This document shows, piece after piece, positions 11,577-60,878 of a stretch of DNA of 64,000 nucleotides. Every line of letters begins with the position of its first letter. Position 1 is the stretch's first letter. Origin of the DNA: a virus (lineage: Duplodnaviria > Heunggongvirae > Uroviricota > Caudoviricetes); the IMG/VR virus record IMGVR_UViG_2850796239_000011, positions 1 to 64,000 of that record, one strand, 5' to 3'. The notes under the pieces are model-generated. The model saw only the letters and a program-made list of their open reading frames with translations, made no database searches and was not told where the DNA came from. Position numbers and translations under genes: made by a program.

Positions 11577-14500
11577 TACCGGTATGCTCCACTTAACCGG
11601 CCACCATCACGGGCCTGCTGTTGCATAAAGTCCGCGGCCGCTTTTTTCCCGAGGTCATAAACCACCTTCAGTGCTGCCGGACCTATCTGCCCGTTCGTGC
11701 CGTCGTTATTGATCCCGATGTTGTACTGCGGGGCAAACATCACCATGCCTGAACCACCAGTATCCGCCACAACCCCCAGCTTACCATCAGCACCGCGACG
11801 CAGTGGCAGAATGGCTTCAGGTCCCGCTTCCCCCATCACACCCGCGCCTTTTGCAAAAGCAAAAAACGTCGGACGGTTAACCACCGTGCCACTGTAGCGA
11901 CTCAAATCAGCAGACTGGTAAACACCGCCATCAGCATTAGTCGTGAAGCCGAATAAAGAACCGACGCCCTTTACCGCCTGCATCATGGCCATCTGTGCCA
12001 TAATTCTGGCCATATCTGACAACAGGGAAGAGGTGAAGGATTTAAAATTCAGCTTACCGGTGGTACAGAATGTCACCAGTGCATTACCGGCACTGCTGAA
12101 TGCCACTGTAAACATCTGTTCTGCCGTTCCCGCCGCATTATCCGCATCCGCCGTAAAATTCTGAAACGCCCGCATGGCACCGTTTTTCCAGTCGCCCTGC
12201 GCCACTTCCAGTTCCTGCCAGTAGCGTTTGTTTTCATTCAGTTGTCGCTTCAGGCTCCCCTTCAGCACCTCCTCAGCCCTCCGGTAGTCCTCCGTCCCGT
12301 AAGTGCCTTTCTGGCGACTGTCATTCTCAAGCTGTTGCAACTGTTGCCGGTATTCCTGCCGGATGCGCAACTGTGCCTGGTAGCGCTGCCGCTGCTTATC
12401 CCCCATACCTGCAGTGGCAATATCCAGATTGTGCTGCTCACGCAGTGCACGTTCTTTGTCTGCCAGCTGGCTGGTCAGCTGAACCGTTTTTTTTCTCAGG
12501 TCGTTAAGCGCTGTCTGTTTCTGCAGCTCCTGCTGTTTCACATCCAGCAGCGTCAGCGCCTGAATCAGCTCATTCTTACGGGCCAGCACACTCTTTTCAT
12601 CTGCCGTCAGCTTTTTCCCGTCCAGGTCGCTGATGCGCTGCTGCAGGGCCAGAAGCTGTTTATGCGCTTCAGTCATCCTTTCAGTGGCAATGCCTGCTGA
12701 CTGTCTGGCAGCAGCAATCTGCCCTTCCACCTGTGCCTGCTGCTGACTGTACTGCAGCAATAACCGGGTGGCCTCATCATTACGGGTTGCCCGTGTATTT
12801 TTCTTAATGGCTTTTTCGTAACGTTCATTTTCACGCTGTATCGCCGCATCCCTGACAGCCTGGTCGGCGTACTGCATGGCATTAATACGCGCAATTTCCC
12901 GCTGATGTCGTGCAGCTTCCGTTTCATTCATCCGGTTCAGCGCGGCATTTTCAGCATTCCGGCGTTTCTGTTGCTCCTGGTAATTCCGTTCTGCCTGCGC
13001 TTTTGCATCCTGCAAATCCTTCCGGCGTTTTTTCTCCTGAAGATCGTTAAGACGCTGCTGATCGTACTCCACCTGTGTGGAGGCGTTTGTCCACGGATAT
13101 TTTTTCGCGCGCTGAATTTTTTCCTGTAACGCATCAATCTGCGCATCCAGCGAGTCTTCACGACCAATATTCATGGCCGCATCCCAGAACTGCTTCCACC
13201 AGTCAGACAAGGTTTGCAGCGTACTACCCAGCGCATTGAGATTATTATCAATATCAGATGTGCGTTTACCGGTTTCCTCTGCCAGCGCAGACATGGCGAT
13301 CCGGGCCGCATCACTGGACCGCCCCTGCTCCCCAAGGACGCGTATCTGCTCAAGCTGAGTGGCAGTCAAAAAATGCAGCGCATTGTCCAGCGCCTTCGCG
13401 GCATTTACAGGATCATCCTTCAGCCGCTTAAACTGATTTATGGTATCGCTGACCGACTGGCCAACCGATCGCTCCATCTGTGCGGCAGCTTTCGCCACCA
13501 TACCAATATCGTTTCCATGAAATGCCCCACTGCCCACCACCTGTGCCAGCGCACCGGCTGCCGCATGTTGCGTGATACCATTCCCGGATATGGCCCGGCT
13601 GAGTTTCCACAACTGCCCGACAGTGACACCGGCATAATGTCCCGTCAGCGCCAGCTGACGGTTAAATTCCTCGCCCTCCTTCCGGCCGTCATGCCAGGCT
13701 TTACCCAGACCCAGGACCGCCGCGACAAGTCCGCCAATAACGCCGCCAGTCATCATGCCTTTCGGCGACATCAGTGCGCCTGTCCATCCGGCACGATTAG
13801 CCAGCGTTATCCCGGATCCCCTCAGCGCACCAAAATTGCCGCGCGCCATCTGACTGATTAACACCCCCAGCTCCCGCCGGGCTGCCGCACTTTTCAGCCC
13901 CAGCGAATGTGTGGCTTTTCCTGCCCGCTCCATTTTGCGGATATACACTTCTGCAGCACTGCTTACCCCCAGCTGAGCCGCCCTGGCGCGAAGCAACTCA
14001 GAAGACGACAGATTCTGGCGGGTTGCCTGCTCTTTAAGCTGGCGGATAAACGCCGCTTTCTGCCGGGTGGCCTGTTCCTCTGCCTGCGTCAGGGCACGGG
14101 TTTTCGCCGTGATCTCCGAAATCAGCGCCAGATAATCCTGCTGACCAACCCCGCCACTGTTTCTGGCCTGTCGGATCTGCTGCTGAATACGCTGTAATTC
14201 CTGAAGCCCCGCACCGGCCTGTTTCACACTGTCAATCTGGCGATAAAAGGCGGCAGCCGCTTTATCCTGCGCCTCCGTCAGTGCCCTGGCCTGCGCCTGT
14301 TCCTCGCGCATTTTCTGATTCAGGGCATCCACGCGCAGACGGGTTTGTTCCACCTCACGGGCCATGCGTTCATGAGCCCGTGCGTTCTTTTCCACCGTCT
14401 GCGCATGGGCTGATGCTGCTGTTGCAGCCGAAGAAGCCGCCTGCATTGTCTGCCGAGCCGCCTGAGTCTGACGCTCCATAAAACGCTGCATACGGGCAGA

Positions 14501-14647
14501 AGACCGTTCTGCATCGCTGGCTGCACCATTCAGAAGGTTTTTGATACGGGGAATTTCATTTTTAAACTCTGCCGCATCAATCCCCAAATCAATGACCAGG
14601 TTGGCTATCTGGTCCATAACGCACACCTCCGGAAATACCTTCCCCAA
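11576..14647 (-). CDS. H: Tail tape measure protein (H-like)
   Basis: 1023 aa, coiled-coil/Gln-Ala rich with Gly-rich membrane-like segment; start may be the internal Met at 14617. Confidence 0.9.
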   Translation of the reverse strand: MGKVFPEVCVMDQIANLVIDLGIDAAEFKNEIPRIKNLLNGAASDAERSSARMQRFMERQTQAARQTMQAASSAATAASAHAQTVEKNARAHERMAREVEQTRLRVDALNQKMREEQAQARALTEAQDKAAAAFYRQIDSVKQAGAGLQELQRIQQQIRQARNSGGVGQQDYLALISEITAKTRALTQAEEQATRQKAAFIRQLKEQATRQNLSSSELLRARAAQLGVSSAAEVYIRKMERAGKATHSLGLKSAAARRELGVLISQMARGNFGALRGSGITLANRAGWTGALMSPKGMMTGGVIGGLVAAVLGLGKAWHDGRKEGEEFNRQLALTGHYAGVTVGQLWKLSRAISGNGITQHAAAGALAQVVGSGAFHGNDIGMVAKAAAQMERSVGQSVSDTINQFKRLKDDPVNAAKALDNALHFLTATQLEQIRVLGEQGRSSDAARIAMSALAEETGKRTSDIDNNLNALGSTLQTLSDWWKQFWDAAMNIGREDSLDAQIDALQEKIQRAKKYPWTNASTQVEYDQQRLNDLQEKKRRKDLQDAKAQAERNYQEQQKRRNAENAALNRMNETEAARHQREIARINAMQYADQAVRDAAIQRENERYEKAIKKNTRATRNDEATRLLLQYSQQQAQVEGQIAAARQSAGIATERMTEAHKQLLALQQRISDLDGKKLTADEKSVLARKNELIQALTLLDVKQQELQKQTALNDLRKKTVQLTSQLADKERALREQHNLDIATAGMGDKQRQRYQAQLRIRQEYRQQLQQLENDSRQKGTYGTEDYRRAEEVLKGSLKRQLNENKRYWQELEVAQGDWKNGAMRAFQNFTADADNAAGTAEQMFTVAFSSAGNALVTFCTTGKLNFKSFTSSLLSDMARIMAQMAMMQAVKGVGSLFGFTTNADGGVYQSADLSRYSGTVVNRPTFFAFAKGAGVMGEAGPEAILPLRRGADGKLGVVADTGGSGMVMFAPQYNIGINNDGTNGQIGPAALKVVYDLGKKAAADFMQQQARDGGRLSGAYR

Positions 14648-14926
14648 GATGCATCAGTTCTTCGTCCGTTCGCTCCGGTATCCCGTTCTCTTCCGGTAAA
14701 AGGCTGAAATCAGCCACCGCAGCATCACTGCTGCCGGACACCATTCTCACGATCAATGCCTTCAGCGAGGCAAACTGCGCATCCATCCACACATCACTGA
14801 AGCTCTGCATCCGGAAATAATCGCCCCACTCACCAAGCTCAGTGGCCGACATTTCCGACAGCATCCGCCGCCAGTCTGCCCGCCGGAACTCCCGGGCAAG
14901 CCGCATGACAAACTGCATTTCCCGCG
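14589..14926 (-). CDS. T: T segment of tail assembly chaperone G-T (expressed by -1 frameshift from G)
   Basis: Open -1 frame overlapping the G 3' end; slippery 'GGAAAAG' at 14933-14939 just before the G stop. Confidence 0.6.
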
Positions 14927-15331
14927 TCAGGACTTTTCCGGCGTCAGCGCCTCATGATCATCATCCCCGGCATTCTCAATGGTCCCCATACCGCTCAGCG
15001 ACAGAACCCTCTCCGCCCCCGCGCCCAGCGCATCATACGACCATGTTGTCATAATGGATGCGCAAAGCGTCTCAACATCCTGAGACTGCTCAGCATTCCA
15101 CAGTGAGCGGGAAACCAGCCAGGCATTGATATCCATTCCCATACGCAGAAAAGCAATCTGTCGTTCAGCCTCCGGCAGTTCTCCCTCCTGTGCATCAAAC
15201 TTTGCCGTTCGCTGCTGAACAAACGTCAGATATTCAATTCTCTGCAGCCCGGACAGCTCACTGAGCACCACGGACTGTTTTTCATAATTAAACGTATCCT
15301 GTTTCAGAAACATCATGTTCTCCGGATGCAA
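14927..15331 (-). CDS. G: Tail assembly chaperone G
   Basis: 134 aa lambda G-like ('MFLKQDTF...LSELSGLQRIEYL'), between V and H. Confidence 0.8.
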   Translation of the reverse strand: MHPENMMFLKQDTFNYEKQSVVLSELSGLQRIEYLTFVQQRTAKFDAQEGELPEAERQIAFLRMGMDINAWLVSRSLWNAEQSQDVETLCASIMTTWSYDALGAGAERVLSLSGMGTIENAGDDDHEALTPEKS

Positions 15332-15371
15332 AAAGCCCCGGATAACCGGGGCAATGATGAGTATCGTCCTG

Positions 15372-16100
15372 TTATGGTGCGCTGACGGTCACCGCAGCCA
15401 CTGCCACAAACTCTCCGTCAGAGGTCATGCCCACGATGCTGACACTGCCCTGCTTCACGCCTTTCACCGTGGCCACAAGCCCGCTCAGGGTCACCGAAGC
15501 AGTCTGAGGATCTGACGAATGCACACTGATCTCTTTGTCACTGGCCCCGTCAGGTTTTACTGTAAAGGTCAGTGTGGTGGTTGCTCCCGCTTTGACACTG
15601 ACAGATGCCGGTGCCACCGTCAGTCCGGTAACACCCACGGTTTCAGCGCCCTCCTCTGCCAGATACGGACGCCCCACACCGCTGATTTTTACAGTACGGG
15701 TCATCACCTCTTTTGAGGTAATGGTTTTACCCAGTGAACTCAGCCAGCCACGGAAAACATCAACCGTACCGTTGGGGTATTTGATACGAAACGCGCAGAC
15801 TTCACCGGAATCGAACAACTGAACCAGTTTTTTCTGCCCGCTGTCCCCCGGACGCCAGGCCAGCGTCGCCGAAGTATCACCGACGGATTTCTGCCCCTGG
15901 GTTGTCGTTTTCCAGTCTGCATCTTCATCATCGAGATAAGTGTCATCTTCTGCATCAGCGGTCATCTCGCCAGGTTGCAGATCCTTCACCATCGCAAGAC
16001 GCAGCCAGTCAGGGTTCGCAAATGCGTCGCCGTTGCCGGTATACATCCATAACGTCGTTCCCGCACCTTTCGTTTTTGCCAGTGGATTTGGTGTGGTCAT
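15372..16100 (-). CDS. V: Major tail protein V with C-terminal Ig-like domain
   Basis: Lambda V-like ('GAGTTLWMYTGNGD...DEDADW...FRGW'); start trimmed to 'MTTPNPLAK'. Confidence 0.9.
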   Translation of the reverse strand: MTTPNPLAKTKGAGTTLWMYTGNGDAFANPDWLRLAMVKDLQPGEMTADAEDDTYLDDEDADWKTTTQGQKSVGDTSATLAWRPGDSGQKKLVQLFDSGEVCAFRIKYPNGTVDVFRGWLSSLGKTITSKEVMTRTVKISGVGRPYLAEEGAETVGVTGLTVAPASVSVKAGATTTLTFTVKPDGASDKEISVHSSDPQTASVTLSGLVATVKGVKQGSVSIVGMTSDGEFVAVAAVTVSAP

Positions 16101-16110
16101 TACCACCTCC

Positions 16111-16524
16111 TTAATTCGTGTACGTGATCTGGTACGTGATTTCCGCCATCGCCCAGGTGGCCATCTCATTATCACGTTGATAGTTAAAACCAAGTGGGAT
16201 CAGGGTGTCGATGAGTCCGAAAAGTGCCGGTACATCATTCAGGGCCGGGAAAATGGTGCTCTCCATCCACATATCCAGCTCTGAATCCGGTGCCTGTGCC
16301 CGGATGAAGACGGCAATATGCAGAACAGCCTGCCAGTCATCTTCATCCGTCATTTTTCCGGTGTACTGAGCATCACTCAGCCACACCGCCACGGCAGGCA
16401 GTTCCTGCGCATCAATAAATGCCGGAAGCCCGTCAAAAAACGTGGCGCTGTCTCCACACTGTTCCCGAAGGCGTGCCAGTACGACCTGGCGGATCTGTGT
16501 ATGTCGGTTCATCGGGTCAGCCAT
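16111..16524 (-). CDS. U: Tail terminator / minor tail protein U
   Basis: Lambda U-like ('ATFFDG...PAVAVWL...DSELDMWMES'). Confidence 0.85.
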   Translation of the reverse strand: MADPMNRHTQIRQVVLARLREQCGDSATFFDGLPAFIDAQELPAVAVWLSDAQYTGKMTDEDDWQAVLHIAVFIRAQAPDSELDMWMESTIFPALNDVPALFGLIDTLIPLGFNYQRDNEMATWAMAEITYQITYTN

Positions 16525-17093
16525 AACCTCAGTTGTTGTTTCAGTGCATACCCCAGCTGTTTCGGCATTTCCGCAGCAATGATGCGGTCGCGGGCATCTT
16601 CAAATGCCTGTGTCAGCGGTCCGGACATCGGGATTTTCACCACATCAATGGGGTAACGATTTTTGCCGTCAATACGCCGCATCACATGCCAGCGACCATT
16701 CGCCAGTTGCTGAATAAACGCATCCCGGAAAAGGTATTTCCCCACTTTCAGTACGCTGCCACGATGACGTGAGTTGCTGCCATGCCGGGAGCGGGCCAGT
16801 CTGACCTGTGCGGTACCCAGCTTAATGGCGGGCAGGTTACCCCGGTTAACACGCATGCGGGCATACATTTTTCCTGAGGGGCTGGCTTTAAGCAGCCTGA
16901 CACGCTCCCTGACCGTTTTCAGGGGAATACCTTTCACCTGGTTATCCCCGGCAACGGTATTCTGCGCAACCTGCCGTGTGGCGACAGAAACAATCTTTGC
17001 CGCCACACGGTTTACCGCCCATGCGCTGGCCTGTGGCACCATGCGGGTATCGAGGCTGTTCAGATTGCGGATGGCATTCTCAAGCCCCTTCAT
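16509..17093 (-). CDS. Z: Tail completion protein Z
   Basis: 194 aa lambda Z-like; position between the head-tail joining genes and U. Confidence 0.8.
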   Translation of the reverse strand: MKGLENAIRNLNSLDTRMVPQASAWAVNRVAAKIVSVATRQVAQNTVAGDNQVKGIPLKTVRERVRLLKASPSGKMYARMRVNRGNLPAIKLGTAQVRLARSRHGSNSRHRGSVLKVGKYLFRDAFIQQLANGRWHVMRRIDGKNRYPIDVVKIPMSGPLTQAFEDARDRIIAAEMPKQLGYALKQQLRLWLTR

Positions 17094-17782: not shown

Positions 17783-19773
17783 TTACGCCGTACATTTCAC
17801 CAGACCGCGGTGATCAACTGGCGCGACACCAGCGTCAATACGCACTTTCGTTGTCACGCCATCCACACTGAAGCCCTCCATCTGATCAATATATGGCGTA
17901 TCCACACCGTTGAGATAAGCCACTTCAATCGTATCGGAGCCTTTGGACGCAGCCAGGTAGAAGGTGGTCTGGCTGTTATCATCAAGACGAGGCTCTGCAA
18001 TAACGGTCGCAAAATCTTTCACCGGGTTAATAATACCGGCGTTAATGTCAGCCCCCTTGACACTTGAGGAGCGAATGACCTGGTTAGCAACAGACTCCAT
18101 CGCCGTCGGTACCAGTACGAACGCAGGACGAATATTCAGATGACGCTCACCCTCTTTCTGAACACGCATCAACTGGCGGGCTTTATCCAGCGATGCCACG
18201 TCCATTGCAGCGCTCTCCAGTACGTTTGCATGTTTCGCTTTATCGAACAGACTTACATTATCTGTGGAGATTTTCGGGTTAGACGTCAGAATGGCATAAA
18301 CCAGATCGGCAATAGTGGATTTTGCCGCACGGCCCAGTTTCATCGGGACATCGGTCAGCATATTCAGATCATCGTTGATAATGGCCTGACGGGTGATACT
18401 GAACAGTTCACCATAGGTCGCCAGTGCAATCGTGGCCTGTTTATCTCCGGTAGTAACGTATTTATATTCCGCTCCTTCACGCACCTGACGCAGAGCACTG
18501 AAGCCCCCATACCCACACGATGGGCAATTTTAAAATCAGACAGCTGACCTTTCCGCGTCCACTGTTCATAGGTTTCAGGGGCATCTTCCCAGCCCTGCAG
18601 AATGGCTTTGTTCGCAACATCCAGCAGAATATTACCGAAGTCAGACGTACTGTGTGTGAACGCTGCCCCGACCATCTGCATCGGGTTATAACCGGAAACC
18701 CCAATACCCCGTTCAGTCAGTGACATACGGGCATATTCACGCAGGGTCATCCCGTTGTAGACATTATCACGTTCAGTTTTTTCAAACCCGGCACGCGCCA
18801 TCAGCGCCTGGCGGATCCCGTCCCCCACAAAATTACCGTTTCCGACATAAATATGGGCCGGGGTATTTTTATTTGATGGTGAAAATTCCTTACCCATTTC
18901 GTTAAGTAATTTCTCACGGGCCTGCTCAAGCGAGCACTCCGGATCGGAAAGACAACTGGCCTGCAATGTCTGATAACGCCCGCCAAACATACCAAACAGT
19001 TCATTAATACCACTCACACGTGTTTTTTGCTCTGCCAGTACCTGCGCACGGATACTGCTTTCATCTGCGGAAGGTGCATTTGTGGTGGTCGCGGTTGTGG
19101 CAACCTGAGCCGTAGTCTGCTCCTGTGTCTGAGATGCAGTATTTTTGTTTTCAGGTTCACGCGTTGCACTGTTGCGTGGCGGAGTAATCATGTTTCGAAT
19201 GGATTCCGGCATCTTTTTAAATTCCTCTGTACGTTTTGACTGAATACATGCCATTGCCTTAACGGCTGGCGTCACCTGATCAGCAAATCCATGTGCCAGA
19301 CATTCGGCACCGGACATCCAGGTCTCATCCGCCAGCATGGCAGCAACTTCATCGGTGGTTTTCCCGGTTTTCTGTGCATAAGCGGGTAACAGAACCGCCT
19401 CAACTTTATCGAGCAGGTCGGCATAGGTGCGCATGTCCTCCGCATCACCGCCCGTAAAGCCAAATGGTTTATGAATCATCATGAAGGTGTTTTCCGGCAT
19501 AATGACCGGGGTTCCCACCATCGCAATGACCGACGCCATTGATGCCGCCACACCGTCGACATAAACGGTAATGGACGCACCATGTGTTTTCAGTGCATTA
19601 AAAATGGCGATGCCTTCAAAGACATCGCCACCCGGTGAATTGATATGGAGATTAATGTGGGTGATATCGCCCAGTGCATTCAGATCACTGATAAACTGCT
19701 TCGCCGTAACACCCCAGAAACCAATCTCGTCATAAATATAAATATCCGCGTCACTCTGGTGACCTGCCTGCAT
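17783..19773 (-). pseudogene. ClpP-like prohead protease fused to major capsid protein; reading frame broken by 1-nt deletion in a homopolymer
   Basis: 504-aa ORF (ClpP-like N-terminus 'ADIYIYDEIGFWG...INSPGGDVFEG', Thr/Gln-rich linker, capsid N-terminus) continues in the -1 frame as a 233-aa capsid C-terminus; frames join cleanly if the C5 run at 18504-18508 were C6. Confidence 0.7.
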
Positions 19774-19786
19774 CCTGAACCAGGAA

Positions 19787-21123
19787 TTATTCTTCGGACT
19801 GGCCGTCGGTGTGCTGCGGCTCCTGTCGTTTCGTTGCGACACTGCTGCCTCCTTTATCACTGGCCGGATCGGTATCAAATATCAGACCCAGCTTGCGGTT
19901 TTCATCAATTTCAGCCTTGCGCCGACGTTTGACATCATCCGGATTACGCCCACCTGCTCGCACCCAGTCTGATTCTGTCGCCGCTCCACCGCGAATCTGG
20001 ATTTTCCAGGCCTCAGCCTCCTTAACCGGATCAATCCACGGCATGACCGGACCGGAATATGTTGCGTTACACAACGGGTACCGTTGTAATTGCGCGCCGC
20101 ACTGGAAAAACTCATACGACTGCCTGCGGCCACCGCACGCAGCTGCCCGTTACGAAAAGTTTCAAGGTTAGGATTGGGCCGATCAGATTTGACCATGCCA
20201 ATATCTTCCCCCTTGCGCAAATCGTCATAAATAATGCCAGGGGTGATATGCAGTTCCCGGTCATTATCTTTATTTATCGTGGCGTCTTCATAATCCTGCC
20301 CATCTCCTTTACGGATATACAGCCCCAGAGCCGCAGCCGCTGTCAGCTCAGCATCTTCATATTCCTTAAGCGCACTGATCCGCATCAGCACACCTGACAA
20401 CATGGATGTACCACGCGTCTGATGCAGACGACGGGTAAATTTCAGATGCACCATATTTTCGGCAACGATCTCTTTGGTATCACTCAGCCGCCCGGTAGTC
20501 GGATGATTTTTATAAACCAGGTATTTTTTCGGTCTGCCCCAGTCATCCAGAAAAACACCCTGATTCAACCCCACAGATTCATCACTGAGCATGGGCACAA
20601 AATCCGGCTCCATTGCCTCGATCCAGAAAGGCACGCCAGCAGTCCGCACCAGCCCGCCGCCGGCACCACGAACCAGCTGGGCAAACACTTCACCATCACG
20701 TAACCAGGTACGCAGCAGCAGACGCTCGAGCATGGGGCGCGTATACTGCCCGGTCACATCCGGACTGACAGACCATTCCACCCACAAGCGACGGATAATC
20801 ATTGCCAGCTCTGTGGCTATATCACCGTTCTTCAGTAATGGCTGGGGTTCGGCAACGATCCCTTTTGCACCAATCACCCGTTCCTCAAGTTTGTCGAAAA
20901 CACCGATTACCAGATCATGATTGATGTCCAGAAAACGAGCCTGCTCCCGCAGGGAAACTGCACCGTACTTACTGAGCTGGTCGGCAGAACGATTTTCCCG
21001 CCGGGCTTTATGTGTACGAGTAGGCTTCACTGCCTCATAGGCACGAATTAATGCCCTTGAGCGCAATCTCGCAGCTTTCCAGCCAGGTGAAAAAACACCA
21101 ATCACATCATCAAGAATTGCCAT
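19787..21123 (-). pseudogene. Portal protein, apparently frameshifted near 20050-20080
   Basis: 413-aa ORF has an Arg/Cys-rich junk-like tail; a protein-like acidic C-terminus ('PWIDPVKEAEAWKIQIRGG...') continues in the -1 frame (95-aa ORF). Confidence 0.65.
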
Positions 21124-21359
21124 CAGAACCTCGCCAGTTTATAGCCCGGCGTCCCCCGTCGCCGCGCAGCCAGAGTCGCAAGGCGACGTTCCCACTCCTG
21201 CCGCCCCTGTCGGATCTCGGATAAGTTTTCCATGGTCATCTGCTGACCATTAAAAGTAATGGACTTTCCGTCCAGCACTGCCATTTCCGCATTGATATAA
21301 CGATGGATCATGGCTTCAATATCATTCTGGTTCACAACCATCCTCCGGAAGTCACCCAT
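21123..21359 (-). CDS. gpW-like head-tail joining protein
   Basis: 78 aa between terminase large subunit and portal; C-terminus 'RRRGTPGYKLARF' resembles lambda W. Confidence 0.55.
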   Translation of the reverse strand: MGDFRRMVVNQNDIEAMIHRYINAEMAVLDGKSITFNGQQMTMENLSEIRQGRQEWERRLATLAARRRGTPGYKLARF

Positions 21360-23434
21360 GGGTTTTCTTCATCAGGCACCACTTTTTTTCGTTTCTTTTT
21401 TTTAACGGACACGGATACCGGCTCCGGCGAGGCTGACAGTCCGGCATCATCCCTGACACGCTCCAGCCAGGTTTCCCTGCATGCCCATTCCGGTGCATCC
21501 GGCCACTGAATTTTCTCGTAACCATGCAGAATGACCAGAGCCTCGGCATACACCATCAGGTCAAAAGCTTCGTTGGCACCTCGACCCGGCTTACTCCATT
21601 TCCCGTCACTGCTCCGCTCTTCATACGTCAGTTCGTCGTAAAACCAGCTCCCCAGCCAGTCAGGGAAATGCACATAGCCGGGACCTGGCGAGTCACGCCA
21701 TAACGCGTTATTCACCCGGTCTTTCAGGGCATCCGTCTGAAGAAGCCAGAGCGGCACATCACCTGCGGCCTGCGCCCGTCGGCCCGTTCGTCCGGTGTTA
21801 TCAGGGAATGTACGGGTGATCAGTTTTGCGCGCCGGATGCTGTCGCCCTTAAACAGGTAAATACGTTTACCAAGGCCATCACGACGGCAACGACGCCAGA
21901 ATTTATAGGCATTATCAGTGACCCCGTCTTCACCGCCGGAGTCCACCGCCATTGCCATCAGTCGCATTTGTTGAGAAGGATCGGAGGCCAACGGCCAGCT
22001 TTTATGAAAAACATCCGTCAGCAGGACATCCCAGTCCTCAGGATAACCAGCAGGATCAATTCGCAGGCTTTCTCCGTTGTTGTCACAACGCAATGACTGC
22101 GTGATGTTGTAACGATCAATAATCCAGCGTTCGCCACGGCAACCATAACCCGTTACCTGAACCACAAAACGGCGATGACGTCCCGCCTGCACATCCACTG
22201 TCGCCGCCAGGAAATTAACACCATCCGGCACGCAGCGGGGAGGAACAGGCTCTGCCCGCTGCTCAAGCAGTTCACTTTTTCGTTGCTCCATGCTGGCGCG
22301 GGGAAGATAAGGTAATCCCCAGTCGGTGTTGATAACCGCCCTGAGTGTTTCTTCACTTCCGGTTGTCTCGTATTCCTGTTCTGCAGTAAGCAGTTTGTAA
22401 ACGAGTTGCGAGAGTGTCTGGTAAGCAGCTGCCGGACCCTCCATCCAGAATGACGCAATACGTGAACGCCTGGGATCACCATAACGACTGCCATCCGCAT
22501 TGATGGATTCACCATCCCGCAACCAGACCCCACGTCCGTTCAGCTCACGTTTTTGTTCAGGCATAATCCGTCCTGAACAGGAAGGACACTGAATATAAGC
22601 CGCCTCACTTGCCAGCACGGGATCGGCAATATCACGGAAACCAGCAACCACATCGCCGCAGGGCTGAAAATACTCACCACAGTGTGGACAGGGCCAGTAC
22701 CAGCGACGGCGATCGCCACGGTTATAGAGCGACAGTATCCCCGTGGTTGGTGGAGCCTCATGCGGTGAAGTCCGTCGCCATTTCACATCCTTCACATCCC
22801 TGCCGGGGGAACTCTCCACCAGCGTCATACCACTGGACATAAATGTTGTGGTACGTTTTGAGGCAAGAGAGAAAGCATCCCCCTCACCATCAATATCTTC
22901 CGGAAAACGGTCATAATCCGTCAGCGCGACGCATTTATAATCTGATGAGGACATGATATTGACTGACGGCCAGCCGATTTTCAGGTAGTTGCCAGCAAGG
23001 AATGTTCTGTCATAAACGTTGTTGTCATTTTTGTTCGGACTCAGGCGACTGACCACTTCCGGGCTGACGCGAAACGTTCTGGCGAGTCGTTTTTTGGAGT
23101 GTTCGCGGGCTTTTTCCTCCGTCATCTGAATGATCAGCATATCAGCAGGATCGCAAATCACGTTGTAAATCACCCAGCCGTCAATCAGGCCGATAGTCTT
23201 GCCGGTTCGTGCCGGGCCAACAAATATCACTGCGTCGTATTCACGCGAGGCCAGGCAGTTCATCGGCTCAATAACATACGGTGCCACCAGCGGATCCCAC
23301 GGGACTGAGTTCCCTGCCCCCATGGGCACCCGCATATACTGAGCAACGGCATCAGCAACCCGCATTCGTCTCGGTGCGCGAAGGATATAACCTGAATCGG
23401 TTCGTGCTGCCTTTGCGGTTTCCTGATTCAGCAT
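21332..23434 (-). CDS. Terminase large subunit (gpA-like)
   Basis: 700 aa with Walker A-like 'VGPARTGKT' and nuclease region; lambda A-like position. Confidence 0.92.
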   Translation of the reverse strand: MLNQETAKAARTDSGYILRAPRRMRVADAVAQYMRVPMGAGNSVPWDPLVAPYVIEPMNCLASREYDAVIFVGPARTGKTIGLIDGWVIYNVICDPADMLIIQMTEEKAREHSKKRLARTFRVSPEVVSRLSPNKNDNNVYDRTFLAGNYLKIGWPSVNIMSSSDYKCVALTDYDRFPEDIDGEGDAFSLASKRTTTFMSSGMTLVESSPGRDVKDVKWRRTSPHEAPPTTGILSLYNRGDRRRWYWPCPHCGEYFQPCGDVVAGFRDIADPVLASEAAYIQCPSCSGRIMPEQKRELNGRGVWLRDGESINADGSRYGDPRRSRIASFWMEGPAAAYQTLSQLVYKLLTAEQEYETTGSEETLRAVINTDWGLPYLPRASMEQRKSELLEQRAEPVPPRCVPDGVNFLAATVDVQAGRHRRFVVQVTGYGCRGERWIIDRYNITQSLRCDNNGESLRIDPAGYPEDWDVLLTDVFHKSWPLASDPSQQMRLMAMAVDSGGEDGVTDNAYKFWRRCRRDGLGKRIYLFKGDSIRRAKLITRTFPDNTGRTGRRAQAAGDVPLWLLQTDALKDRVNNALWRDSPGPGYVHFPDWLGSWFYDELTYEERSSDGKWSKPGRGANEAFDLMVYAEALVILHGYEKIQWPDAPEWACRETWLERVRDDAGLSASPEPVSVSVKKKKRKKVVPDEENPWVTSGGWL

Positions 23435-23927
23435 TACTCCTCCTGCTGTAATTCCTCCTCATCATCCGCACCTGCTTCAGTCACCCGCAGGGCTATCTGA
23501 TCGCGCAGATCATCAATAATGGACTGAACACGGCTCACAGCGGCAGGCTGCAGACCGCAGTCACGTTCAAGAATATCCGGTAATGTCTCCAGCACCTGCA
23601 CGACCGCTTTTGCCCAGATGGCAAACTCCCGTCTGACATCACTGGCCGGAATGAGTTGTGCCGTTTCCTGTTCGAACTTAAGACGCTCACGTTCAGACTG
23701 ATACCAGGCTTTGCGCTCATGCGCGTCCATTTCGCCTTCTGCAACCGGCGGTGGTAATGCCAGAAATGCCGACACAATATCAACCACCCGATAAAGCTTG
23801 AGGTTGCTTTCATGCCCCCTGCAACGGGTAGATTTTGCAGCCTTGCCGCAGCAGTCTGGCGATGTACACCTGACAGTGCCGCCAGTTGACTGATATTCAG
23901 CGTCAGATTTTTTAACTCTCGATCCAT
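23434..23927 (-). pseudogene. Terminase small subunit (Nu1-like), frame broken at a G/C homopolymer
   Basis: HTH N-terminus ('LNISQLAALSGVHRQTAAARL') in one frame, C-terminus ('YRVVDIVSAFLALPPP...DDEEELQQEE') in the -1 frame; restored if the C5 run at 23815-23819 were C6. Confidence 0.65.
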
Positions 23928-24084
23928 ACCCGCTCCAGAATGTTTTAAACATGCATCTTGCGAACAACTTTAGGCAAACGGTGTTAGTGATGAACAAAAA
24001 ACAATCAAAATCGACACCATAAAAATAAAACCACTGTAATATCAATCCATTACAGTAGTGGTGATGACGAATGAAATTTCAAAA

Positions 24085-25962: not shown

Positions 25963-26492
25963 TGATCTATCCCCCAACAGGCTAATGCGCTTTCCTGGTC
26001 ACGACGAATAACCTGTCCATAGCAGTTATTTGAACGTATGCGGCAATCGCGCCCAACATCTTTTATCCACCAGCGAATCGCCTCGCATGCGCCCTTACGA
26101 TCACCGGCATTCAGCCGCTTATAAAACGTCGACGGGAAACACTTACCGGGGCCAATGTTATAGGGGCAAAATGACGCTATACCCGCTTTTTGTGGTTCGG
26201 TCAGTGGTACTTTAATATTGCGCTCCACCCATGCCAGCGCCTTATCACGTTCAATGGCGTTAACCTGGTCGCATTTTTCCTTCGACAGTTTCATACCGGG
26301 AAAAACGGGTTTACCATCCACCATCGTGGCACCCCGACAGATGGTCCAGATGCCGGAACCATCGCGGTATGCCGTAGTGTGGTTACCTTCTTTTTCATCC
26401 AGAAACTGGTCGAGAATATCAGGCGCAGGCGCACCGATAGCAATCAGTGCCAGAACGGCAGCCGACAGGCCATATCTGATTTTTACGTTCAT
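25959..26492 (-). CDS. R: SAR endolysin (phage lysozyme)
   Basis: 177 aa; N-terminal signal-anchor-release segment ('[18 protein letters not shown]') and lysozyme core. Confidence 0.85.
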
Positions 26493-26605
26493 GGATATTT
26501 ATCAGGATTTATCGGCTTCAAATCCCCGGATATGTTAAATCTTACCTCGCCAGTGATGGGCACTGGCGGGAGGAGGATGTCAATCTGATAAACACAGAGG
26601 TGACT

Positions 26606-39706: not shown

Positions 39707-39793
39707 TGGCTAATTTATCCCCTGTATCTGTTGTGCACGAAAAAGTGCAGTGAGGTGTACTGGCAATAGCGGACACTACCATTTGTTCTTTTT

Positions 39794-40612
39794 TTAAGCA
39801 GCCATCTGATGATATTTTTCCCTGAAGGCTGCCGGGGAGATATTCCCCAGACGAGAGTGACGACGCTGACGATTGTAGAAAATCTCAATGTATTCCCGTA
39901 TTACTGAGATGGCTTCATCCCGGTTATTAAAACGATAGTGGCTCAGGCTCTCATTTTTCAGCGTTCCCCAGAAGCTTTCCATCGGAGCGTTGTCGTAACA
40001 GTTACCTTTACGCGACATTGATGTTTTCAGACCAGACTGCTCCTGTATGACCCGGTAATCGTATGCGCAGTACTGTGAACCTCGATCAGAGTGGTGGATT
40101 AGCCCGGCAGGTGGGCGCTGGCTCCTGAGCGCCATAAACAGGGCTTTACCTGTCAGCTCTTTTGTCATGCGCTCTCCCATGGCGTAGCCGACAATTTCGC
40201 ACGTATAAACATCTTTGATGCCAGCGAGGTACAACCATCCCTCCTGTGTGGCAACATACGTCAGGTCCGCCACCCAGACCTGATTTGGTGCTGTAGGAGC
40301 GAACGTCTGGTTCAGCAGATTTGGCGCAACTGGCAGATTGTGGTTCGGGTTCGTAGTCGCTCTGAACTTGCGTTTCTGCTTACAGCGTAGCCTTAGCTCC
40401 TTACGAAGACGTGCCAGTCGGTCACGACCAACGATGATGCCATTCTCTGCCAGCTCCGTCTGGAGCCGCCGGGTTCCATATGTTTCGCGAGTGCGGATAT
40501 GTGCCACCTTAATCTCCAGTTTTAGCCGCTCATCACTTTGTTTTCTGTCTGAGGGTTCATGCTGTACCCAGTTGTAATAACCGCTCCTGGATACACCAAA
40601 TACCTGACACAT
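39794..40612 (-). CDS. IS600 transposase OrfB (DDE integrase domain)
   Basis: 272 aa IS3-family OrfB. Confidence 0.9.
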   Translation of the reverse strand: MCQVFGVSRSGYYNWVQHEPSDRKQSDERLKLEIKVAHIRTRETYGTRRLQTELAENGIIVGRDRLARLRKELRLRCKQKRKFRATTNPNHNLPVAPNLLNQTFAPTAPNQVWVADLTYVATQEGWLYLAGIKDVYTCEIVGYAMGERMTKELTGKALFMALRSQRPPAGLIHHSDRGSQYCAYDYRVIQEQSGLKTSMSRKGNCYDNAPMESFWGTLKNESLSHYRFNNRDEAISVIREYIEIFYNRQRRHSRLGNISPAAFREKYHQMAA

Positions 40613-40647
40613 CGCTTCAATGGGAAATTGTTGTCGCCATTGTTCGA

Positions 40648-40950
40648 TTAACGCGTATTTTTCAGCGACTCCTGTGCAAAATACGCTGTTGCTTTTTTTA
40701 ATATATCTCGCTCAAGGCGAGCTTCATTTAACGCCTTACGCAGTTGCAGAATTTCAGATTCCAGTTCAGCCACCGTGCGGGAACCAGGAGTACCGAGCCC
40801 TTTTCTGGCGGCGGTAACCCATTGTCCTAAAGTGCCTTCAGGAAGGGATAATCGGGAAGCGCCTTCACTGATCGAAAGTTGATTTTCAAGAACCGTTCTG
40901 ACAGCTTCGGCTTTGAACTCTTTAGAGTAACGTTGGGTTTTTCTGCTCAT
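40648..40950 (-). CDS. IS600 OrfA (HTH)
   Basis: 100 aa 'MSRKTQRYSKEFKAEAVRTVLENQLSISEGASRLSLPEG'. Confidence 0.9.
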   Translation of the reverse strand: MSRKTQRYSKEFKAEAVRTVLENQLSISEGASRLSLPEGTLGQWVTAARKGLGTPGSRTVAELESEILQLRKALNEARLERDILKKATAYFAQESLKNTR

Positions 40951-41159
40951 TATTAGCTCCTTCTGATGCCATTCTATTTCAGGAAGGAGTGTCCGTTAAA
41001 CTCAGGCTACCTCACAGATCGTTATGACAATTGAAAATGGCCAGGTAACAGATGTCTGCAAAGTCCGCGATGGAGAGCTGATTGCCAGCATGGATACATT
41101 CATACGGCTGGCAGAAAGAGCGGGGTATCAGATAACAGCACCTGCTCAGGAGGAAACCA

Positions 41160-42242: not shown

Positions 42243-42568
42243 ATGACTAAAAATACTCGTTTTTCCCCGAAGTCCGTCAGAGGGCGATTCGTATGGTTCT
42301 GGAAAGTCAGGGCGAATATGACTCACAGTGGGCGGCAATTTGTTCCATTGCCCCAAAGATTGGCTGTACACCGGAGACTCTGCGTGTCCGGGTACGCCAG
42401 CATGAGCGGGATACCGGAGGCGGTGATGGCGGGCTCACCACCGCTGAACGTCAGCGTCTGAAAGAGCTGGAACGTGAAAATCGTGAACTGCGCCGCAGTA
42501 ACGATATCCTTCGCCAGGCTTCCGCTTATTTTGCGAAGGCGGAGTTCGACCGCCTCTGGAAAAAATAA
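42243..42568 (+). pseudogene. IS629 orfA with 1-nt deletion
   Basis: Starts 'MTKNTRFSP' then shifts frame; the in-frame remainder is the 42293-42568 ORF; 'CCGAAG' where 'CCGGAAG' is expected. Confidence 0.7.
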
Positions 42569-44518: not shown

Positions 44519-44581
44519 TGAGGTAGCCTGAGTTTAACGGACACTCCTTCCTGAAATAGAATGGCATCAGAAGGAGCTAAT

Positions 44582-44884
44582 AATGAGCAGAAAAACCCAA
44601 CGTTACTCTAAAGAGTTCAAAGCCGAAGCTGTCAGAACGGTTCTTGAAAATTAACTTTCGATCAGTGAAGGCGCTTCCCGATTATCCCTTCCTGAAGGCA
44701 CTTTAGGACAATGGGTTACCGCCGCCAGAAAAGGGCTCGGTACTCCTGGTTCCCGCACGGTGGCTGAACTGGAATCTGAAATTCTGCAACTGCGTAAGGC
44801 GTTAAATGAAGCTCGCCTTGAGCGAGATATATTAAAAAAAGCAACAGCGTATTTTGCACAGGAGTCGCTGAAAAATACGCGTTA
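44582..44884 (+). pseudogene. IS600 orfA with premature stop (Gln24 to stop)
   Basis: Identical to copy 1 orfA except CAA to TAA at 44651-44653. Confidence 0.7.
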
Positions 44885-44920
44885 ATCGAACAATGGCGAC
44901 AACAATTTCCCATTGAAGCG

Positions 44921-45739
44921 ATGTGTCAGGTATTTGGTGTATCCAGGAGCGGTTATTACAACTGGGTACAGCATGAACCCTCAGACAGAAAACAAAGTGA
45001 TGAGCGGCTAAAACTGGAGATTAAGGTGGCACATATCCGCACTCGCGAAACATATGGAACCCGGCGGCTCCAGACGGAGCTGGCAGAGAATGGCATCATC
45101 GTTGGTCGTGACCGACTGGCACGTCTTCGTAAGGAGCTAAGGCTACGCTGTAAGCAGAAACGCAAGTTCAGAGCGACTACGAACTCGAACCACAATCTGC
45201 CAGTTGCGCCAAATCTGCTGAACCAGACGTTCGCTCCTACAGCACCAAATCAGGTCTGGGTGGCGGACCTGACGTATGTTGCCACACAGGAGGGATGGTT
45301 GTACCTCGCTGGCATCAAAGATGTTTATACGTGCGAAATTGTCGGCTACGCCATGGGAGAGCGCATGACAAAAGAGCTGACAGGTAAAGCCCTGTTTATG
45401 GCGCTCAGGAGCCAGCGCCCACCTGCCGGGCTAATCCACCACTCTGATCGAGGTTCACAGTACTGCGCATACGATTACCGGGTCATACAGGAGCAGTTTG
45501 GTCTGAAAACATCAATGTCGCGTAAAGGTAACTGTTACGACAACGCTCCGATGGAAAGCTTCTGGGGAACGCTGAAAAATGAGAGCCTGAGCCACTATCG
45601 TTTTAATAACCGGGATGAAGCCATCTCAGTAATACGGGAATACATTGAGATTTTCTACAATCGTCAGCGTCGTCACTCTCGTCTGGGGAATATCTCCCCG
45701 GCAGCCTTCAGGGAAAAATATCATCAGATGGCTGCTTAA
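44921..45739 (+). CDS. IS600 transposase OrfB
   Basis: 272 aa, two substitutions relative to copy 1. Confidence 0.9.
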   Translation: MCQVFGVSRSGYYNWVQHEPSDRKQSDERLKLEIKVAHIRTRETYGTRRLQTELAENGIIVGRDRLARLRKELRLRCKQKRKFRATTNSNHNLPVAPNLLNQTFAPTAPNQVWVADLTYVATQEGWLYLAGIKDVYTCEIVGYAMGERMTKELTGKALFMALRSQRPPAGLIHHSDRGSQYCAYDYRVIQEQFGLKTSMSRKGNCYDNAPMESFWGTLKNESLSHYRFNNRDEAISVIREYIEIFYNRQRRHSRLGNISPAAFREKYHQMAA

Positions 45740-45867
45740 AAAAAGAACAAATGGTAGTGTCCGCTATTGCCAGTACACCTCACTTATCTCAGCAGAAATT
45801 ATCAGTATTGAACCCGCTACAAACATACGGCTCTGAAGTTCTCACTATTCAGAGAGCAGGAGAAAAA

Positions 45868-59501: not shown

Positions 59502-59840
59502 TTACTCCTGAGGTTTACCCATCACTTCATCATTGCGGTTAACGCCCGGAGCCGGATTTTTCTGCGGCAGCGGTTCAAGGCCGGATTTAACGGCTTTCTG
59601 CTCCGTAGCCTGCGAGACTGCACTGTTCGCCTTATCCTGCGCAAAAATAACGCCATTTTTCACATAAGGTTGCTGTCCGTGCTCCGCCAGCCAGGCGTCA
59701 AAAAACACCTTATCGACCTGCGTCAGACCATAGCCCCCACAATTTTAACCGCGTTATTCCGCCAGCCTGCCACCTGAACCCGTTTCTGACCCACTTCCAG
59801 CACCAGACCGTTCGGCAGTTTGCAGCCCACTGTTACCATT
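59502..59840 (-). pseudogene. Small head-module gene, frame broken at a homopolymer
   Basis: ATG 59838-59840 overlaps the capsid stop (ATGGCTGA); runs 41 codons then continues as the 68-aa ORF in the -1 frame; restored if the C5 run at 59734-59738 were C6. Confidence 0.45.
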
Positions 59841-60878
59841 TCAGCCATAACTCACACCCCAGCATTTGTGCATACGCCAGCGGCTGGCGAATAATCGCCC
59901 CCAGGTACCAGCGGATTTTTTCTGTTTCCAGGAAGACGTATCTGCCACTACCGCATGGGCGCGCATTTTTTCAGTGAAAGCGCAATAGACTGTATCCTGT
60001 TCACCCAGACGCTCCGCGATAAGCTGTACCAGCTCGCCAGCGTCAGAGGTGTATTCCACCGCCGTTTCAATGGTCATCGCCGGGAAATTTTTCGCCAGCA
60101 GATCGGACACGTTAACCCTGTACTGGTTTGTTTTGGTGAGGTTCACCTCTGCCAGCGGCGACATGCACAGTTTCATTTTGTCGGTACGCTCAATATGACC
60201 GTTAGTCTGTTTCACCAGTTGCTTAAAGAGTTTCACGATATCGTCATACACGCCCTGTCCGTCCTTGTCGTCCCACTTCAGTTTACCGTCAACGGTATCC
60301 GGGGTGATTGGTGCAGATAACGACGGATCATTCAGCAAACCGTAGTTCGTCAGTCCGGCAATACCGTAGAAATAGGACTTATTCTGGAACTTATTCAGCG
60401 TCAGTGCTGACGCCACGTTCAGCTCTGCCGCCCAGCCAATACGGGCTGCGCCGTACATCTCCAGCTCACGTTCGCCCCATACGGTGAAGGTCTGGAAGTG
60501 ATAGCTCTGGCGCGGTACCCAGTTGACGTTTGCGCTTACCACCCCGTTGTTGCTGTAATCCCCGTAGGAACTCACCTCCCCGTCAGATTCTGCAATCGGG
60601 AATTGTGCCGACAGTGTCGTCCAGTCACCTTTTTTGGTTTCGCCCAGAATCTGAGCGGCTTTCATCGGCGTCACCAGCACGCGGATCAGTTCTGGCTCAA
60701 CGTAATTGGTGAAATACGCAGGGATACCGCTGTTAGCCGCTGTGACCAGCGCAGGCTGCGCGTCCATCGCCAGTCCGTAATCGGCGGCGTACTCCTTCGG
60801 CAAATAAGCCTGTGCTCCGGGAAGAATAATCCCGTAGTCGCGACTTGCCGTCGCATAATGCTGTTTAAATTTATTCAT
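59841..60878 (-). CDS. Major capsid protein (lambda gpE-like family)
   Basis: 345 aa; follows the decoration-like and protease/scaffold genes. Confidence 0.65.

Follow-up and report, generated by a model that had tools for sequence, protein, structure and literature searches.

Genome decay in Shigella has left behind lambdoid prophage remnants which are defective, ridden with insertion sequences and bear ipaH genes. The prophage described here resembles them: it carries an ipaH effector gene, its early-left region holds two IS600 copies and another IS3-family element, and an essential morphogenesis function has been deleted. It is unlike the typical remnants in that most of its other late genes are intact, which points to an early stage of decay.

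The order of the head and packaging genes is shared with Enterobacteria phage mEp460 (NC_019716) and phage cdtI at about 90-94% DNA identity: a DUF1441 gene, a GpA-type large terminase, a head-tail adaptor, a lambda-family portal, a fusion of ClpP protease, scaffold and capsid, a decoration protein and the tail genes. Phage mEp460 is viable and has a complete portal gene of 1509 nt, whereas the portal gene studied here lacks 160 bp. The two also differ at the start of the putative small terminase gene, where mEp460 has a run of five A, an upstream ATG and a product of 172 aa, and the Shigella lineage has six A, a downstream ATG and 164 aa.

The same prophage, adjoining bioA-ybhB, is present in the ipaH- and IS600-carrying E. 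coli FDAARGOS_944 and FDAARGOS_943, with 99.2-99.7% DNA identity across the module. These genomes share the chromosomal neighbourhood (ybhB, ipaH) and the tail genes of our prophage, and their early region diverges beyond position 27.5 kb of the window, which is the whole stretch of 64,000 nucleotides that was analysed. Both the 501-aa portal and the 686-aa capsid fusion are complete there, unlike in the window as assembled, and the DUF1441 gene carries the flag "frameshifted", at the C run discussed below.

Origin of the sequence

Sequence comparison showed 100% identity between the window and the Shigella chromosome CP026875.1 (GCA_002950355.1), in which the two C runs of interest, 18504-18508 and 23815-23819 in the window, are found at 4211345-4211349 and 4216656-4216660, respectively. 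That the host is Shigella had been proposed from the sequence alone and is borne out: the truncated portal product is that of Shigella boydii ATCC 9905 (EFW54426.1), and both ipaH and IS600 are within the window.

Accessions CP026774 to CP026878 belong, according to PMC7819885, to the PacBio genomes of 59 historical Shigella strains published by Kim et al. (2018). CP026875 falls inside this block, and on that ground the closed chromosome CP026875.1 was probably built from PacBio reads without short-read polishing. The set has been criticised in PMC8795385 as unpolished and with numerous homopolymer indels; a general account of homopolymer indel errors in bacterial assemblies made from long reads only is given in PMC12007338. 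A literature search for CP026875 and 002950355 found no citing paper, and the supplements of PMC8795385 list neither accession CP026875.1 nor ATCC 9905.

The head and packaging genes as assembled

The features of the module are as follows (window coordinates; minus strand where a strand is given).

17783..19842, minus: ClpP-like prohead protease / major capsid fusion gene, as assembled two open reading frames of 492 aa and 233/192 aa
18504..18508: run of C5 (coding strand G5) at about codon 445, within the capsid-fold domain; judged a 1-nt consensus undercall, most likely C6
19787..20074, minus: orphaned native-frame portal C-terminus, residues 407-501 of the intact 501-aa protein
19882..21123, minus: truncated portal reading frame of 413 aa, native residues 1-349 followed by 64 out of frame
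20076..20077: point at which 160 bp (53 codons plus 1 nt) have been lost from the portal gene; microhomology of about 1 nt
20337..20338: portal gene lacks 9 bp (3 aa) in frame compared with FDAARGOS_944
21123..21335, minus: intact 70-aa gene at the position of the mEp460 head-tail adaptor, with an identical call in all assemblies
21332..23434, minus: intact large terminase (GpA family), 700 aa, Pfam GpA_ATPase and GpA_nuclease
23434..23927, minus: DUF1441 gene (putative small terminase, Nu1 position), 494 nt as assembled, 495 nt / 164 aa with the C run restored
23815..23819: C5 run (G5 on the coding strand) in the DUF1441 gene; judged a 1-nt consensus undercall, true length most likely C6
23903..23908: T6 run (A6 on the coding strand), a real polymorphism relative to A5 of phage mEp460

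The sequence-only reading had noticed frame switches in the small terminase, portal and capsid genes, and all three are present in the sequence at these places, in genes on the minus strand. It had ascribed each of them to a 1-nt indel in a homopolymer. This holds for the DUF1441 and ClpP/capsid genes but not for the portal gene, where the switch at about 20076 is a 160-bp deletion.

Read from the ATG at 23927, the DUF1441 gene has an open frame of 130 aa which departs from the native frame at the C5 run, and the native C-terminal frame continues to a TAA at 23434. Insertion in silico of one C at 23815-23819 gives a single reading frame of 164 aa, in which PF07278 has a full match over residues 10-150 (2.7e-41); in the uncorrected gene the two halves of PF07278 are matched in two different frames. 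The gene directly precedes that of the large terminase, its stop codon overlapping the start of the latter (TAATG), and its position, its PF07278 membership and the annotation of mEp460 make the product a putative, Nu1-like small terminase. The length of the A run in the leader sets which start is in frame, A6 leading to the ATG at 23927 and A5 to the ATG at 23952. The T6 at 23903-23908 is common to all same-lineage assemblies, which align without a gap there. It should be noted that T6 combined with a false C5 creates a misleading 172-aa reading frame (23434-23952) in which 31 codons of the N-terminal region are out of frame.

The protease-capsid fusion behaves in the same manner. One C added in silico at 18504-18508 restores a single reading frame of 686 aa, and only after this correction do the CLP_protease and HK97-type capsid domains stand on one polypeptide; in the assembled sequence a break near residue 445 divides the capsid domain. 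The domain limits were taken from the 686-aa homologue of FDAARGOS_944 (about 99% DNA identity), in which Pfam places CLP_protease at 31-191 and Phage_capsid_4 at 390-683.

The tail genes and the large terminase had been read as intact. For the large terminase this is confirmed by the exact 700-aa protein on 138 contigs, and the tail genes have the same bases as in independent assemblies, with a 12-bp in-frame polymorphism as the one exception. The counterpart of the 70-aa gene in mEp460 is annotated as a head-tail adaptor. An apparent truncation of tail gene K (calls of 199 and 247 aa) was dismissed, since the DNA of locus L009 is identical and only the calling of the start codon differs.

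Comparison with assemblies of the same lineage

Four separately deposited assemblies of the same lineage, from other isolates or stocks than CP026875.1, were aligned to the window.

AERN01000074.1: 23,042 bp aligned, 0 substitutions
AASZXS010000072.1: 21,377 bp aligned, 0 substitutions
ABBSSL010000103.1: 13,651 bp aligned, 0 substitutions
Logan SRR1811688_366: 7,345 bp aligned, 0 substitutions; the same contig in 8 samples

Both C runs (18504-18508 and 23815-23819) are C6 in all four. The other differences in the head module are the 12-bp polymorphism (in frame, at 16012), which sets two of the four assemblies apart from the window, and two indels within the last 40 bases of one draft contig. 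Outside this comparison, AERN01 lacks one IS600 copy relative to the window and has a few SNPs. The gene calls in the same-lineage assemblies are intact, with 164 aa for DUF1441 (called in loci L004, L005, L009 and L010) and 686 or 663 aa for the capsid fusion. C6 at the DUF1441 run is furthermore found in loci L026 and L027 and in phage mEp460, and C6 at the capsid run in seven loci (L001, L002, L004, L005, L007, L009 and L010).

Five more differences were found elsewhere, and at each of them a G/C run is 1 nt shorter in the window.

42265..42268: C4, against C5 in AERN01000089.1; edge of an IS3-family element
59734..59738: C5, against C6; neighbouring myovirus-like prophage, a 115-aa gene reduced to 68 aa; C6 in 7 of 7 independent assemblies
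59857..59860: C4, where C5 is expected; close to the 3' end of a 342-aa head gene; C5 in 7 of 7 independent assemblies
59898..59902: C5, where C6 is expected; also close to the 3' end of this 342-aa head gene, whose call in the window has 345 aa; C6 in 6 of 7 independent assemblies and C7 in 1 of 7
63314..63317: G4, against G5; a Mu-F-like 256-aa gene split into 53 and 202 aa; G5 in 7 of 7 independent assemblies

For the four of these runs that were checked against seven independent assemblies, the shorter length of the window occurs in none of the seven. All seven discrepant runs are shorter in the window, and the comparators have G/C runs of 5-6. An alignment with GCA_012668945.1 over 30,869 bp gave 0 substitutions and 6 indels, which affect 4 of the 8 G/C 6-mers, 2 of the 39 G/C 5-mers and none of the 103 A/T runs of at least 5.

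The portal deletion

The segment missing between 20076 and 20077 corresponds to positions 3979-4138 of the FDAARGOS_944 locus (L001), and the same 160 bp are absent relative to phage mEp460. Of the 501 aa of the intact protein, residues 353-501 are either removed or put out of frame, and the orphaned C-terminus is 100% identical to the intact FDAARGOS_944 portal over 95 aa (blastp). The match to PF05136, the lambda-family portal (2.1e-69), covers residues 35-349 and only positions 3-334 of the 354 in the model; the C-terminal third is missing, since native sequence ends at residue 349 of 413 and the intact homologue has 501. Homology to the solved portals 8vhx and 8gtd spans residues 324-475 of the intact portal, a region mostly lost in the window. 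A search for repeats that could explain the deletion found only the microhomology of about 1 nt at the junction, and no mechanism is proposed. The smaller 9-bp in-frame deletion is real: it is common to the lineage, as loci L004, L005, L009 and L010 align without a gap at 20337/20338.

The presence of the 160-bp deletion in every independent same-lineage assembly shows that it is real and has been inherited by the whole sub-lineage. A collapsed or mis-joined region in the assembly would be an extremely improbable reading, as the very same junction is found in four separately deposited assemblies and in a Logan contig from 8 samples (a 30-mer across it was found in L004, L005, L007, L009 and L010) and the exact 413-aa product was deposited separately in GenBank as EFW54426.1.

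Portals have an established role in the assembly of tailed phages, in nucleation of the prohead and in DNA packaging. Without a working portal the prophage would be unable to nucleate proheads or to package DNA. The truncated portal is predicted to be non-functional and, given this role, the prophage would be defective for particle formation whatever the length of the homopolymers; in principle, a portal could come from a related prophage at another place in the genome.

Models for the frame breaks

The model which we consider very likely is that the two C-run frameshifts are consensus errors, that the portal lesion is a real 160-bp deletion and that the prophage is defective. It postulates that the consensus of CP026875.1 systematically loses a base where a G/C homopolymer is five or six bases long. 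Two of the lost bases would fall in the DUF1441 and ClpP/capsid genes and create apparent frameshifts which are absent from the organism, where both genes would be intact with C6; in the portal gene a true loss of 160 bp would remove 53 codons and shift the frame. Sequencing error at the two true homopolymer sites is strongly supported by the C6 runs and intact genes of the same-lineage assemblies, together with a contraction at five further runs which is one-directional, specific for G/C and dependent on length. The pattern is like that criticised in PMC8795385 for the unpolished PacBio Shigella genomes of Kim et al. (2018) and does not differ from it in kind: single bases are affected, always in one direction and only in homopolymers, genes are fragmented, and short-read assemblies of the same lineage are free of these errors. 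The sequence-only reading had offered sequencing error or slipped-strand inactivation for all three genes; error is the choice favoured for the two C runs, and the portal lesion fits neither, being common to the lineage.

Real slipped-strand mutation of both tracts, in the isolate sequenced as CP026875.1 and in addition to the decay of a portal-less prophage, is conceivable since the comparison assemblies come from other isolates or stocks; head genes of an already defective prophage would be under no selection, and runs of six G/C are plausible sites of slippage. We nevertheless find it highly unlikely. Against the nearest assembly each of the six indels is a deletion in a G/C run, A/T runs are untouched and 30.9 kb contain 0 substitutions; four of the six lie in a different prophage where 7 of 7 other assemblies contradict the window, and the accession batch is documented in PMC8795385 as having numerous homopolymer indels. 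The load extrapolated to the genome, about 1,000 frameshifts and no substitutions, would be implausible as real mutation and would not be viable. A mutator isolate deficient in mismatch repair was rejected for the same lack of substitutions and of changes in A/T runs. A point in favour of slippage is that both tracts are one base short in some assemblies of other prophage lineages, be it as real alleles or through technical error: the small terminase tract is short in FDAARGOS_944 and two Logan contigs, and at least 8 assemblies have a short capsid tract. From these one might propose that the G6 tracts are hot spots at which head genes are recurrently inactivated by slippage during domestication of prophages, the G5 alleles of CP026875.1, FDAARGOS_944/943, L013-L017 and L020-L024 being at least partly real; we regard this as very unlikely.

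Differences in tract length between assemblies of different lineages would also be compatible with phase variation, in which G5 and G6 cells were both present in the culture and G5 happened to be what the long-read consensus reported. This has a very slim chance, as the in-frame length is found at both tracts in all four same-lineage assemblies, a mixture would fail to explain the one-directional contraction at the five other G/C runs, and tracts of six bases are, from general knowledge, short for efficient switching. G-rich runs are likewise generally known to be slippery for ribosomes in some cases, and the prophage has the tail chaperone gene pair G/T, which we take to use the well-known programmed frameshift and which would be a precedent in its own genome for two genes functional as written. 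The probability that the frame switches are such programmed sites is close to negligible: mEp460, FDAARGOS_944 (for the capsid run) and all same-lineage drafts have G6 and a single frame, and the capsid run near codon 445 falls well inside the capsid-fold domain, which Pfam places at 390-683, and not at a domain boundary.

Implications

It had been expected that the choice between error and slippage would have opposite consequences for whether the prophage is inducible. With the portal deletion in place this choice no longer decides particle production and the question is moot, as the deletion alone predicts that no capsids are made from the prophage's own genes.

The consensus-error model matters for practice more than for biology. 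On the present evidence roughly every second G/C 6-mer of the window has lost a base, with seven errors in 64 kb that damage genes or lie near them, so that pseudogene counts, judgements of prophage integrity and inducibility, and allele typing are misled by the record. What remains would be a dead prophage of the ordinary kind in the chromosome of a Shigella. The 160-bp portal deletion would suffice to class this ipaH-carrying prophage as defective for particle formation in the lineage, a state which is expected for Shigella prophages.

Organization of the two prophages

The window holds a lambdoid prophage behind an ipaH effector gene, followed by a second, myovirus-like prophage:

1-477, ybhB
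1060-2823, ipaH effector gene
about 3.0-47.9 kb, lambdoid prophage
23927-23434, minus strand, DUF1441 small-terminase-like gene (terS)
23434-21332, minus strand, GpA-type large terminase, 700 aa
21335-21123, minus strand, 70-aa gene in head-tail adaptor position
from 21123, minus strand, lambda-family portal
from 19842, minus strand, ClpP-protease/scaffold/capsid fusion
beyond the capsid fusion in gene order, minus strand, decoration protein and tail genes
46561-47874, integrase of the lambdoid prophage
directly adjoining the lambdoid prophage, to 64000, myovirus-like prophage with a DUF3383/E217_gp31-type protein in the sheath position, Baseplate_J and other baseplate genes

The order of the head genes is the usual one of the mEp460/cdtI group of lambdoid phages. 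The sequence-only reading took the large terminase and the tail genes to be intact, and this holds: the terminase protein is identical to one recorded on 138 contigs (exact-sequence look-up), and the aligned tail genes are those of other same-lineage assemblies apart from a 12-bp indel at 16012. Holin, lysozyme, Rz, Q antiterminator, replication genes, integrase and a cI-like repressor with an S24 peptidase domain were found as well, and the late region outside the broken head genes looks intact. The early-left region between repressor and integrase carries two inverted IS600 copies (39751-41014 and 44519-45782) and a third IS3-family element. The 39751-41014 copy has no counterpart in AERN01000089.1, a same-lineage draft contig that is continuous through this position; the insertion is therefore recent, and the window and AERN01 strains are not identical. 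The Baseplate_J gene of the myovirus-like prophage has 410 aa against 413 aa in relatives, in which a wedge gene comes next; this suggests that the second prophage was truncated by the lambdoid prophage or by an IS-mediated rearrangement.

Homopolymer runs in two head genes

The window matches CP026875.1 of GCA_002950355.1, a Shigella chromosome, at 100% identity (subtracting 4,192,841 from a record coordinate gives the window coordinate). Among the complete genomes of the E. coli collection, FDAARGOS_944 is the nearest (99.2-99.7% identity to the window); the viable phage mEp460 (NC_019716) shows 90-94%. In base-by-base alignment the capsid fusion has C5 at 18504-18508 against C6 in both. The DUF1441 gene has C5 at 23815-23819 against C6 in mEp460; FDAARGOS_944 likewise has C5, and its gene is flagged as frameshifted in the RefSeq annotation. 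Adding one C to each run gives single open frames of 686 and 164 aa, with full-length Pfam matches to CLP_protease and Phage_capsid_4 in the capsid fusion and to DUF1441 in the 164-aa protein. Four separately deposited same-lineage assemblies cover the head region.

Same-lineage assemblies aligned to the head region (contig; aligned length; substitutions; both runs; other differences)
AERN01000074.1; 23,042 bp; 0; C6; 12 bp at 16012, two indels within the contig's last 40 bases
AASZXS010000072.1; 21,377 bp; 0; C6; none
ABBSSL010000103.1; 13,651 bp; 0; C6; 12 bp at 16012
Logan SRR1811688_366 (same contig in 8 samples); 7,345 bp; 0; C6; none

Both frameshifts are thus absent from all other same-lineage assemblies, in which the gene calls are 164 aa (DUF1441) and 686 or 663 aa (capsid fusion), and they fit a systematic error pattern. 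The 12 bp, an in-frame indel at 16012/16013 in the major tail protein gene (242 versus 246 aa), are missing in the window and GCA_012668945.1 and present in AERN01, ABBSSL01 and two Logan assemblies; the lineage is genuinely polymorphic at this site.

Which of two ATGs, at 23952 or 23927, is the in-frame start depends on an A5/A6 polymorphism of the terS leader (23903-23908): mEp460 has A5, the upstream ATG and 172 aa, whereas the Shigella lineage has A6, the downstream ATG and 164 aa. In the window, A6 and the false G5 (coding strand) open a 172-aa ORF which masks the frameshift and puts 31 N-terminal-region codons out of frame. In two Logan assemblies this 172-aa ORF was accepted by gene callers.

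Error or mutation

The rest of the window was compared with independent same-lineage assemblies, retrieved via two other proteins. Every indel difference is a 1-nt contraction of a G/C run, shorter in the window.

Contracted runs elsewhere in the window (position; window; independent assemblies)
42265-42268; C4; C5
59734-59738; C5; C6
59857-59860; C4; C5
59898-59902; C5; C6
63314-63317; G4; G5

At the last four sites (59738, 59860, 59902, 63317) the shorter run occurs in none of seven independent assemblies. In the alignment with GCA_012668945.1 alone (30,869 bp) there is no substitution, and each of the 6 indels is one base fewer in the window; they affect 4 of 8 G/C 6-mers, 2 of 39 G/C 5-mers and 0 of 103 A/T runs at least five bases long. 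Since the contractions are one-directional, G/C-specific, length-dependent and free of any substitution, they point to consensus-calling error, and on these alignments we judge the homopolymer frameshifts in the head genes to be assembly artefacts.

Four of the five extra contractions damage genes of the myovirus-like prophage: a head gene of 342 aa is read as 345 aa, one of 115 aa as 68 aa, and a Mu-F-like gene of 256 aa falls into pieces of 53 and 202 aa. They look like pseudogenes but belong with the artefacts above.

Sequencing error and slipped-strand inactivation had both been proposed; error stands for the two C runs, with C6 in 4/4 assemblies, and the portal fits neither. The assemblies compared come from other stocks or isolates, and AERN01, without the IS600 at 39751-41014, has a few SNPs; real slippage in the sequenced isolate is still very improbable, and the pattern read as real mutations would extrapolate to about 1,000 frameshifts per genome. 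A phase-variable mixture at the runs, which are C6 in every other same-lineage assembly, deserves slightly less credence again, and programmed frameshifting, with single open frames at C6, practically none.

PMC7819885 attributes accessions CP026774 to CP026878 to Kim et al., and CP026875 would belong to this set from its position inside the block; a literature search found no paper citing CP026875. Gene-fragmenting errors in long-read assemblies are a general problem (PMC12007338). Errors of this kind are known, and the batch to which the record would belong has already been criticised for them.

The same tracts in other lineages

The terS tract is one base short in FDAARGOS_944/943 (FDAARGOS_944 locus L001, 7505-7998) and two Logan contigs (L013, L014), and the capsid tract in at least eight other-lineage assemblies (L015-L017, L020-L024). 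G5 in these other E. coli prophage lineages could stem from real frameshifts passed down within a widespread defective prophage, from slippage that recurs, or from error of the sequencing platform. The product of a 233-aa C-terminal capsid ORF is recorded on about 134 contigs; one assembly (L018) has G6 and a nonsense codon instead, and another (L019) G8 and many other run expansions. In the same prophage of FDAARGOS_944 (locus L006), 6061-7472, 14051-17006 and 26005-26498 are flagged as frameshifted. The flags concern the tail fibre gene, the tape measure gene and the DUF1441 gene, each of which the window lineage has intact, and the flagged frameshifts could be long-read errors or real decay.

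The portal deletion

Three frame switches had been read as three 1-nt homopolymer indels. All three switches are present in the window sequence; the single-base explanation is borne out for the DUF1441 gene and the capsid fusion and fails for the portal, in which base-by-base alignment with relatives gave no 1-nt indel. Here 160 bp (L001 positions 3979-4138) are missing between 20076 and 20077, with about 1 nt of microhomology at the junction; a second, in-frame deletion of 9 bp lies at 20337/20338. The loss of 53 codons and one further base leaves the portal ORF with 349 native and then 64 out-of-frame residues, and an orphan ORF (19787-20074) holds the native last 95 (407-501). The truncated 413-aa protein is EFW54426.1 of Shigella boydii ATCC 9905 (exact-sequence look-up) and is also encoded on a contig of 5,164,076 bp. 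That the deletion is itself artefactual has hardly any chance: it is common to 4/4 same-lineage assemblies, with the junction 30-mer in every one.

The lost segment is conserved: sequence homology to the solved portals 8vhx and 8gtd spans intact residues 324-475, and the Pfam match of the truncated protein stops at model position 334 of 354. In tailed phages, the prohead assembles from a portal nucleus, and the portal also serves as the channel for DNA entry. There is nothing novel in the homopolymer frameshifts or in the portal lesion; the latter is a genuine deletion of an ordinary kind, and the ipaH-carrying lambdoid prophage that bears it is in decay. The organism itself would have a dead portal gene beside intact small-terminase-like and capsid-fusion genes, and because of the conserved segment lost and the established role of portals, the prophage's own genes should not suffice for making filled heads.
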